Notes under the pieces: generated by a model
Told to the model about the DNA's origin: nothing
The model's database searches: none
What the model saw: only the letters and a program-made list of their open reading frames with translations
Assembly: GCF_003334355.1 (NCBI RefSeq)
Contig: NZ_QOWP01000051.1
DNA from: Escherichia coli
GTDB taxonomy: Bacteria > Pseudomonadota > Gammaproteobacteria > Enterobacterales > Enterobacteriaceae
Direction: 5' to 3' (one strand)
Length of the DNA stretch: 14,819 nucleotides
Shown here: piece after piece, positions 2,432 through 2,587 of the stretch
Layout: each line of letters begins with the position of its first letter
Numbering within the stretch: position 1 is the first letter of the stretch
Translations under genes and position numbers: made by a program

Positions 2432-2456
2432 ATTTCCTCCGCATGTTGCCCGGGCA

Positions 2457-2484
2457 ATTCTAGAGTAGCGGGATCAGATGGCAA
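2457..2484 (-). promoter_or_regulatory. Candidate sigma70 promoter for cusRS: -35 TTGCCA (2479-2484), 16-bp spacer, -10 TAGAAT (2457-2462), read on the minus strand
   Basis: Hexamers read directly from the reverse complement of 2432-2500. Spacing and the downstream GGAGG-ATG are appropriate. No transcript data available to me. Confidence 0.45.
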
Positions 2485-2496
2485 TCGCTTATTGGC

Positions 2497-2518
2497 AAAA
2501 TGACAATTTTGTCATTTT
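2497..2518. promoter_or_regulatory. CusR box: perfect 22-bp palindrome AAAATGACAA-TT-TTGTCATTTT in the divergent cusR/cusC control region
   Basis: Sequence at 2497-2518 is AAAATGACAATTTTGTCATTTT; the two 10-nt arms are exact reverse complements. It matches the copper-box consensus AAAATGACAANNTTGTCATTTT as I recall it, and lies between the divergent cusR and cusC starts. Confidence 0.8.
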
Positions 2519-2587
2519 CCTGTCACCGGAAAATCAGAGCCTGGCGAGTAAAGTTGGCGGTATAAAATCACCAGAAACTATGAGCCT

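Follow-up and report, generated by a model that had tools for sequence, protein, structure and literature searches.

The divergent control region between cusR and cusC of Escherichia coli contains an inverted repeat at 2497-2518 that is very likely the operator of CusR in the chromosomal cus locus, and we propose, with moderate confidence, that the operator reaches beyond the palindrome. It would be an asymmetric four-element array, with one inverted half-site and three in-phase direct elements (10-11-11 bp), that loads phosphorylated CusR (CusR-P) toward a cusC promoter lacking a -35 and is conserved across proteobacterial CusR/CopR/AgrR systems. The "conserved PhoB site" would then be conserved as part of this array, with PhoB binding a cross-recognition of the shared TGTCA/11-bp grammar and not the product of phosphate-copper selection. 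The existence and location of the CusR box are already known and published, as is the activation of both cusRS and cusCFBA, and the original prediction acknowledged this in calling it established biology for cus. What is added here is the correction of the repeat to a 10-2-10 element, the correction of the single-site description, and a comparative description of the extended operator, for which there is a precedent in AgrR.

The window, by which we mean the whole 14.8-kb stretch of DNA that was analysed (14,819 nt), is E. coli chromosome, with 99.7% identity to strain 162.2 over 14.8 kb. Open reading frames and NCBIfam profiles place cusS and cusR on the minus strand and cusC, cusF, cusB, cusA, and pheP on the plus strand; ybdG, nfsB, ybdF, ybdJ, and ybdK are also at the locus, according to the RefSeq annotation of a near-identical matching genome. 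CusR scores 507.9 bits against the equivalog NF007346 (cut-off 420) and 323.9 against TIGR01387 (cut-off 279.2), passing both, and the four matching E. coli genomes that we examined share one accession for it, WP_000770953.1. The NF007345 profile match starts at residue 5 of the cusS ORF; the real cusS start is probably a few codons within the ORF, overlapping the end of cusR, and a cusS/cusR overlap is seen in the RefSeq annotation of the near-identical locus. The features of the region are as follows.

304..1770, minus strand: cusS (sensor kinase) ORF; NF007345, 981.7 bits
1748..2431, minus strand: cusR, OmpR/PhoB-family copper/silver response regulator, 227 aa; ORF, NCBIfam equivalog NF007346, and RefSeq annotation of matching E. 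coli genomes
2432..2587, no strand: divergent cusR-cusC control region, 156 bp, between cusR and the cusC ATG at 2588
2436..2440, minus strand: cusR Shine-Dalgarno GGAGG, 4 nt before the ATG; direct reading of the sequence
2457..2462, minus strand: predicted cusR -10 TAGAAT; promoter scan, kept in Klebsiella cus and sil
2479..2484, minus strand: predicted cusR -35 TTGCCA (5/6), 16 bp from the -10; promoter scan
2497..2518, no strand: CusR box (also HprR box), AAAATGACAA-TT-TTGTCATTTT; repeat finder and published consensus, with binding taken from the literature
2521..2526, plus strand: third half-site TGTCAC, which repeats the right arm directly, 11 bp further toward cusC
2533..2537, plus strand: fourth in-phase element ATCAG (family consensus GnCAG), 11 bp beyond the third; putative function
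2549..2554, plus strand: predicted cusC -10 TAAAGT; family TAnnnT at box offset 50, GTAAAGT kept in Klebsiella cus and sil
2588..3961, plus strand: cusC, first gene of cusCFBA; ORF, NF007347, 899.6 bits

The spacer is also 156 bp long in a K-12-like genome, and a 261-bp stretch around it is found in 5336 of 5426 complete E. coli genomes, where the flanking genes are annotated as cusR and cusC. We note that an IS1-family element, which matches IS1F-like copies at 100% identity, ends in the window: its terminus makes up the left end (1-77) and meets the sequence downstream of cusS near position 78; this junction is common to only 40 of the 5426 complete E. coli genomes (at least 80% of a 310-nt query). 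Much of the multi-copy matching of the window is due to this IS1 fragment. At the right end, a sok antitoxin RNA (Rfam RF01794, 63.7 bits against a gathering score of 59) matches at 14664-14819, downstream of ybdK, and presumably represents the hokE/sokE locus.

The sequence at 2497-2518 is AAAATGACAATTTTGTCATTTT. The repeat finder reports two arms of 10 nt (2497-2506 and 2509-2518) that are 100% complementary and separated by 2 nt. The original prediction had described a perfect 22-bp inverted repeat lying between the divergent cusR and cusC starts and about 70 bp upstream of the cusC ATG. The repeat, its coordinates, and its perfect 10-nt arms hold, as does its location, since the ORFs bound the spacer at 2432-2587 and we count 69 nt from the end of the box to the ATG. 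The reverse complement is AAAATGACAAAATTGTCATTTT, however, and the central TT is not self-complementary; the element is therefore 10-2-10 and not a perfect 22-bp palindrome. Its core is a 6-4-6 arrangement, ATGACA (2500-2505)-ATTT-TGTCAT (2510-2515), and this core (2500-2515) matches the CusR/CopR/AgrR-family consensus ATKACANNNNTGTMAT at 12/12 positions.

An accidental palindrome without function is the simplest alternative, and shuffling offers it a little room: no other perfect inverted repeat with arms of 10 nt or longer, separated by 4 nt or less, occurs in the window, and when the whole window is dinucleotide-shuffled, an average of 0.10 such repeats arises, with at least one in 23 of 300 shuffles. 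When the 156-bp spacer is shuffled alone, however, such a repeat arises in only 3 of 5000 cases. The published CusR box AAAATGACAANNTTGTCATTTT has exactly one match in the window, with 0 mismatches, at 2497-2518, and none of 200 shuffles contained a match even with up to three mismatches. Of the 5336 complete E. coli genomes that have the spacer, 5148 contain the box and the 12 nt upstream of it without any change. The identity to the published box, its invariance in 5148 genomes, and the family-wide conservation described below effectively refute chance as an explanation.

Binding at this site is documented in the literature. PMC10920338, citing Franke 2003 and Yamamoto & Ishihama 2005, states that CusR-P binds the box in the cusR-cusC spacer and activates both operons, and PMC11522558 also states both points. 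The K-12 CusR box of Yamamoto & Ishihama 2005, as cited in PMC10920338 and in bioRxiv 10.1101/2020.08.17.251918, has the same 22 bp, 156-bp spacer, flanking genes, and orientation, and the window spacer differs from that of a K-12-like genome at three SNPs only. The prediction that one site serves both autoregulation and efflux-operon activation is thus borne out by literature on the identical K-12 sequence and by the NCBIfam gene identities. Genome-wide data agree: CusR gives no other ChIP-chip peak in the genome than the one at this spacer (bioRxiv 10.1101/2020.08.17.251918), and gSELEX with unphosphorylated CusR likewise yields a peak here and nowhere else (PMC8249747). That study describes repression of cusCFBA by unphosphorylated CusR when inducer is absent, so the site may also act negatively (PMC8249747). 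Copper-dependent activation at the cusC promoter has been confirmed, with no coordinates given (PMC12132413), and PMC12589874 and PMC11522558 do not give promoter anatomy. Usable transcription start coordinates for cusC or cusR were not found in the literature searched, and the PDB holds no structure of a CusR-DNA complex.

The three SNPs relative to the K-12-like genome (2519 T>C, 2561 C>T, and 2578 T>C) all fall outside the box. The first lies directly 3' of it, in the spacer of the PhoB site. The second changes K-12 CATAAAAT into TATAAAAT, and O157 also has T at 2561; the third is not in any of three genomes compared. The best match of the 261-bp stretch in a spread sample of complete genomes is 99.6% (one mismatch). 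The spacer additionally contains a 20-nt direct repeat of 80% identity, 2523-2542 (TCACCGGAAAATCAGAGCCT) and 2568-2587 (TCACCAGAAACTATGAGCCT), 45 nt apart. Its first copy spans the third and fourth elements and its second ends at the cusC ATG; this repeat may be chance.

The case for a longer operator comes from comparing CusR relatives. The loci were taken at one genome per species, together with a Klebsiella cus, two sil, a Ralstonia cop, and an Acinetobacter locus. Each spacer was oriented with the regulator on the left and numbered from the A of ATGACA (window 2500 is position 1), and ATKACANNNNTGTMAT, the AgrR consensus from PMC7380067, was applied with a threshold of at least 10/12. This threshold was reached in 36 regulator-upstream regions: 30 of 79 testable loci and all 6 cus, sil, cop, and Acinetobacter spacers. 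The box usually lies 30-110 nt from the regulator ATG, and the family loci continue downstream with copper-resistance genes (CusF-like, CopA multicopper oxidase, and CopI). A position matrix was built from 35 non-redundant spacers, and its box columns score 0.8-1.85 bits. The spacers were selected for containing the box, which introduces no direct bias in the flanks, but the sample is not phylogenetically independent.

On the target-gene side of the box, three further blocks stand out in this matrix. GTCA at matrix positions 23-26, corresponding to TGTCAC at 2521-2526, is found in 29, 30, 25, and 27 of 35 spacers per column; the exact GTCA occurs at this offset in 20/35 spacers, at no more than 4 at any other offset, and in 4/35 on the mirror side. 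At positions 34-38, GnCAG is conserved (G34 26/35, C36 23/35, G38 28/35) and corresponds to ATCAG at 2533-2537; CAG is at offset 36 in 17/35 family spacers, and the element is imperfect in E. coli, with A instead of G at its first position. The third block is TAnAnT at positions 50-55 (A51 29/35, T55 27/35), corresponding to TAAAGT at 2549-2554. TAnnnT is at box offset 50 in 17/35 spacers and at offset 49 in a further 3, with no more than 3 at any other offset. No column of the 35-spacer matrix exceeds 0.52 bit on the regulator side of the box. We note that six loci (L012, L014, L016, L022, L026, and L008) also carry, on the regulator side, an inverted half-site (GATGAC/CATGAC) that is roughly one turn away from the box. 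It corresponds to the "up and/or downstream" repeat described for AgrR, and E. coli cus has none there. At loci L051-L089 (Bacteroidota, Firmicutes, Acidobacteria, Alphaproteobacteria, and others), where identity of the regulator to CusR falls below about 50%, a ATKACANNNNTGTMAT box is mostly missing from the 350 nt upstream, and these loci were left out of the matrix; the grammar of the operator thus seems to be limited to the proteobacterial CusR/CopR clade.

AgrR, a member of the CusR family, provides the functional precedent. It binds ATKACANNNNTGTMAT and an in-phase direct repeat, both of which are needed, and acts as a class II activator (PMC7380067). The cus region resembles the AgrR system in its 6-4-6 core (12/12), in a promoter-proximal direct repeat one helical turn away, in a predicted class II-like position, and in a divergent autoregulatory layout. 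AgrR differs in being another regulator from another organism, which was studied in a silver-resistant mutant as an active, unphosphorylated form. The need for the promoter-proximal direct repeat has been demonstrated for AgrR only (PMC7380067); TGTCAC is its putative counterpart in E. coli. By extrapolation from AgrR and from the conservation, CusR of E. coli very probably contacts the third and fourth elements as well, although the published E. coli CusR box spans the palindrome only.

Two related systems show the same arrangement. HprR recognizes the same sequence as CusR, with its strongest gSELEX peak at the cusR-cusC spacer (PMC8249747); HprR and CusR bind both the cus and the hprR-hiuH spacers, and the HprR/CusR box in the latter is CATTACAAAATTGTAATG (PMC9302797, PMC8249747). 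HprR affinity is lower for the hprR-hiuH spacer than for the cus spacer (PMC8249747). That spacer (L090, 4371-4425) reads ATTACA-AAAT-TGTAAT, with TGTAAG at +11 on the hiuH side and TATCCT at box offset 50. It thus has the 6-4-6 geometry, the third half-site at +11, and the box-to-(-10) distance of cus, whereas its half-sites are ATTACA/TGTAAT in place of ATGACA/TGTCAT and its fourth element is not recognizable. Plasmid SilR is 86-87% identical to CusR. The silR-silC spacer contains AAAATGACAA-CA-TTGTCATTAT-CC-TGTCAC, followed by AACAGAG and GTAAAGT, in the order and phase of cus, and its regulator promoter is TTGATA-16-TAGAAT; sil differs in having imperfect arms, and in one sil variant the left arm contains ATGATAG. 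A blastn search (distant mode) of the spacer against plasmids aligned sil in its coding flanks only, and the sil spacers were compared by eye and by script on the retrieved loci, since the remaining spacer is too diverged for blastn. In light of these comparisons, the description of a single symmetric site is right in part: the core is symmetric and shared by both directions, but in-phase half-sites extend it toward cusC, HprR shares it, and PhoB overlaps it.

The predicted -10 TAAAGT places the box with respect to cusC. The promoter is without a recognizable -35 (CCGGAA at that place), and the implied start at about 2561 would put the box center (2507.5) near position -53.5, with the proximal elements between roughly -40 and -24. 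RegulonDB reportedly lists the CusR site at -53.5 of cusCp, which would agree with this placement. The cusC -10 could instead be the A/T-rich TATAAAAT at 2561-2568, which would move the box to about -67, a class I position and not -53.5. Its TATAAA and TAAAAT are nearer to consensus than TAAAGT, and the T at 2561 shared by the window and O157 betters the match relative to K-12 CATAAAAT. On the other hand, the promoter scan did not return it, no -35-like hexamer lies 16-18 bp away, and the family TAnnnT peak at offset 50 corresponds to 2549 and not to 2561-2563. Nor is it conserved in Klebsiella cus or sil, and on that ground we rejected it as the cusC -10; we regard this alternative as quite improbable and retain TAAAGT.

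The overlap with PhoB bears directly on why the third half-site is conserved. The PhoB ChIP-seq site in K-12 is TGTCATTTTTCTGTCACC, and deletion of phoB lowers cusC from 208 to 50, an approximately 4-fold drop (PMC10294691); ChIP-chip, EMSA, and reporter data agree with PhoB binding upstream of cusC (PMC3465305). In the window, this site is 2510-2527, which comprises the right arm of the box and TGTCAC and equals TGTCATTTTTCTGTCACC except for 2519 T>C. The segment TGTCAT-N5-TGTCAC (2510-2526) might accordingly be conserved for the phosphate-starvation regulon as a Pho box, with PhoB and not CusR binding the third half-site. The K-12 ChIP-seq site at exactly this sequence, the drop of cusC in the phoB deletion, and the agreement of the ChIP-chip, EMSA, and reporter data all speak for such a reading. 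So does the sequence: as in a Pho box, two TGTCA-type units (TGTCAT 2510-2515 and TGTCAC 2521-2526) are retained at 11-bp phase, one of them in common with the CusR palindrome.

The position of the site argues the other way. A Pho box lies about 10 bp upstream of the -10, in place of the -35. Between the end of the 18-bp site in the window (2527) and the first base of the predicted -10 (2549) there are 21 bp, so that the site is about one helical turn further upstream than in the canonical arrangement; the T>C at 2519 moreover falls within the A/T-rich Pho spacer. CusR-family spacers that precede copper genes, among them those of Pseudomonas, Burkholderiales, and Acinetobacter, also have the in-phase GTCA after the box; the same in-phase element occurs in the E. 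coli hiuH promoter (TGTAAG), and a direct repeat of this kind is used by AgrR itself (PMC7380067). With the third element kept at copper genes far outside the enterics, a CusR-family operator explains its conservation more simply than the pho regulon does. We consider conservation for the pho regulon unlikely; PhoB binding at cus is real, as the literature shows, and is better read as an overlay on the CusR-family operator.

In the opposite direction, TTGCCA-16-TAGAAT (10/12 matches) is the only sigma-70-like match in the spacer, against 0.3 expected from shuffles. The plus strand at 2479-2484 reads TGGCAA, i.e., TTGCCA on the minus strand, where the original prediction had placed its candidate cusR -35. 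In Klebsiella cus and the two plasmid sil spacers, TTGCTA, TTGATA, or TTGATC is followed after exactly 16 bp by TAAAAT or TAGAAT, and the 16 bp between the hexamers have diverged across these spacers; Citrobacter has TTGCTA at the equivalent -35 position. Since the hexamers and their spacing are kept while the sequence between them differs, this phylogenetic footprint supports TTGCCA as the -35, and the candidate stands as the sole promoter-like match, conserved in Klebsiella cus and sil. A second minus-strand TTGCCA (2498-2493), which overlaps the left flank of the box, was rejected: it has no -10 partner, and the corresponding hexamer is GATCCC. The implied cusR start would be at about 2450, with the box center (2507.5) at about -57.5. 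Both the -53.5 and the -57.5 placements rest on the predicted -10 hexamers and the starts that these imply.

The predicted starts also bear on whether the repeat might act through nucleic acid structure, as a cruciform, hairpin, or terminator, and not as a protein site. As single-stranded DNA, the segment does fold, at -7.3 kcal/mol (z = -3.8 versus shuffles). Yet the repeat would not be transcribed, because it is upstream of both predicted starts. Its stem is A/T-rich around a center of only 2 nt with no T-run after it; the terminator scan found none in the spacer, and no Rfam family matches the spacer. The conservation, furthermore, obeys the half-site and phase rules typical of winged-helix regulators. 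A structural role is thus highly improbable, and a protein operator is the reading we carry forward.

Taken together, these data suggest a mechanism in which periplasmic Cu(I) or Ag(I) would activate the CusS kinase, and phosphorylated CusR would bind the 6-4-6 core ATGACA-N4-TGTCAT. CusR-P would very probably also contact TGTCAC (2521-2526) and ATCAG (2533-2537), toward cusC, and the array of elements would end beside a cusC promoter with a weak -10 (TAAAGT) and no -35. With such a -10 and no -35, this promoter would be activator-dependent. In the opposite direction, the same box would lie about 57 bp upstream of the implied cusR start, and the near-consensus TTGCCA-16-TAGAAT would probably provide basal cusRS expression with modest positive autoregulation. 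Given an activator-dependent cusC promoter facing a near-consensus cusR promoter, the control region would be functionally asymmetric despite its symmetric core. The paralogous HprR uses the same box, and PhoB binds the overlapping direct repeat TGTCAT-N5-TGTCAC.

This reading has a practical side, in that engineers of PcusC copper biosensors often assume that the operator is no more than the 22-bp palindrome. Judging from the in-phase elements and the constant distance between box and -10, the minimal operator would reach to about 2537, and the spacing to the -10 should be preserved. For the biology of the family, the comparative result would offer a simpler explanation for the apparent conservation of the PhoB site upstream of cusC.
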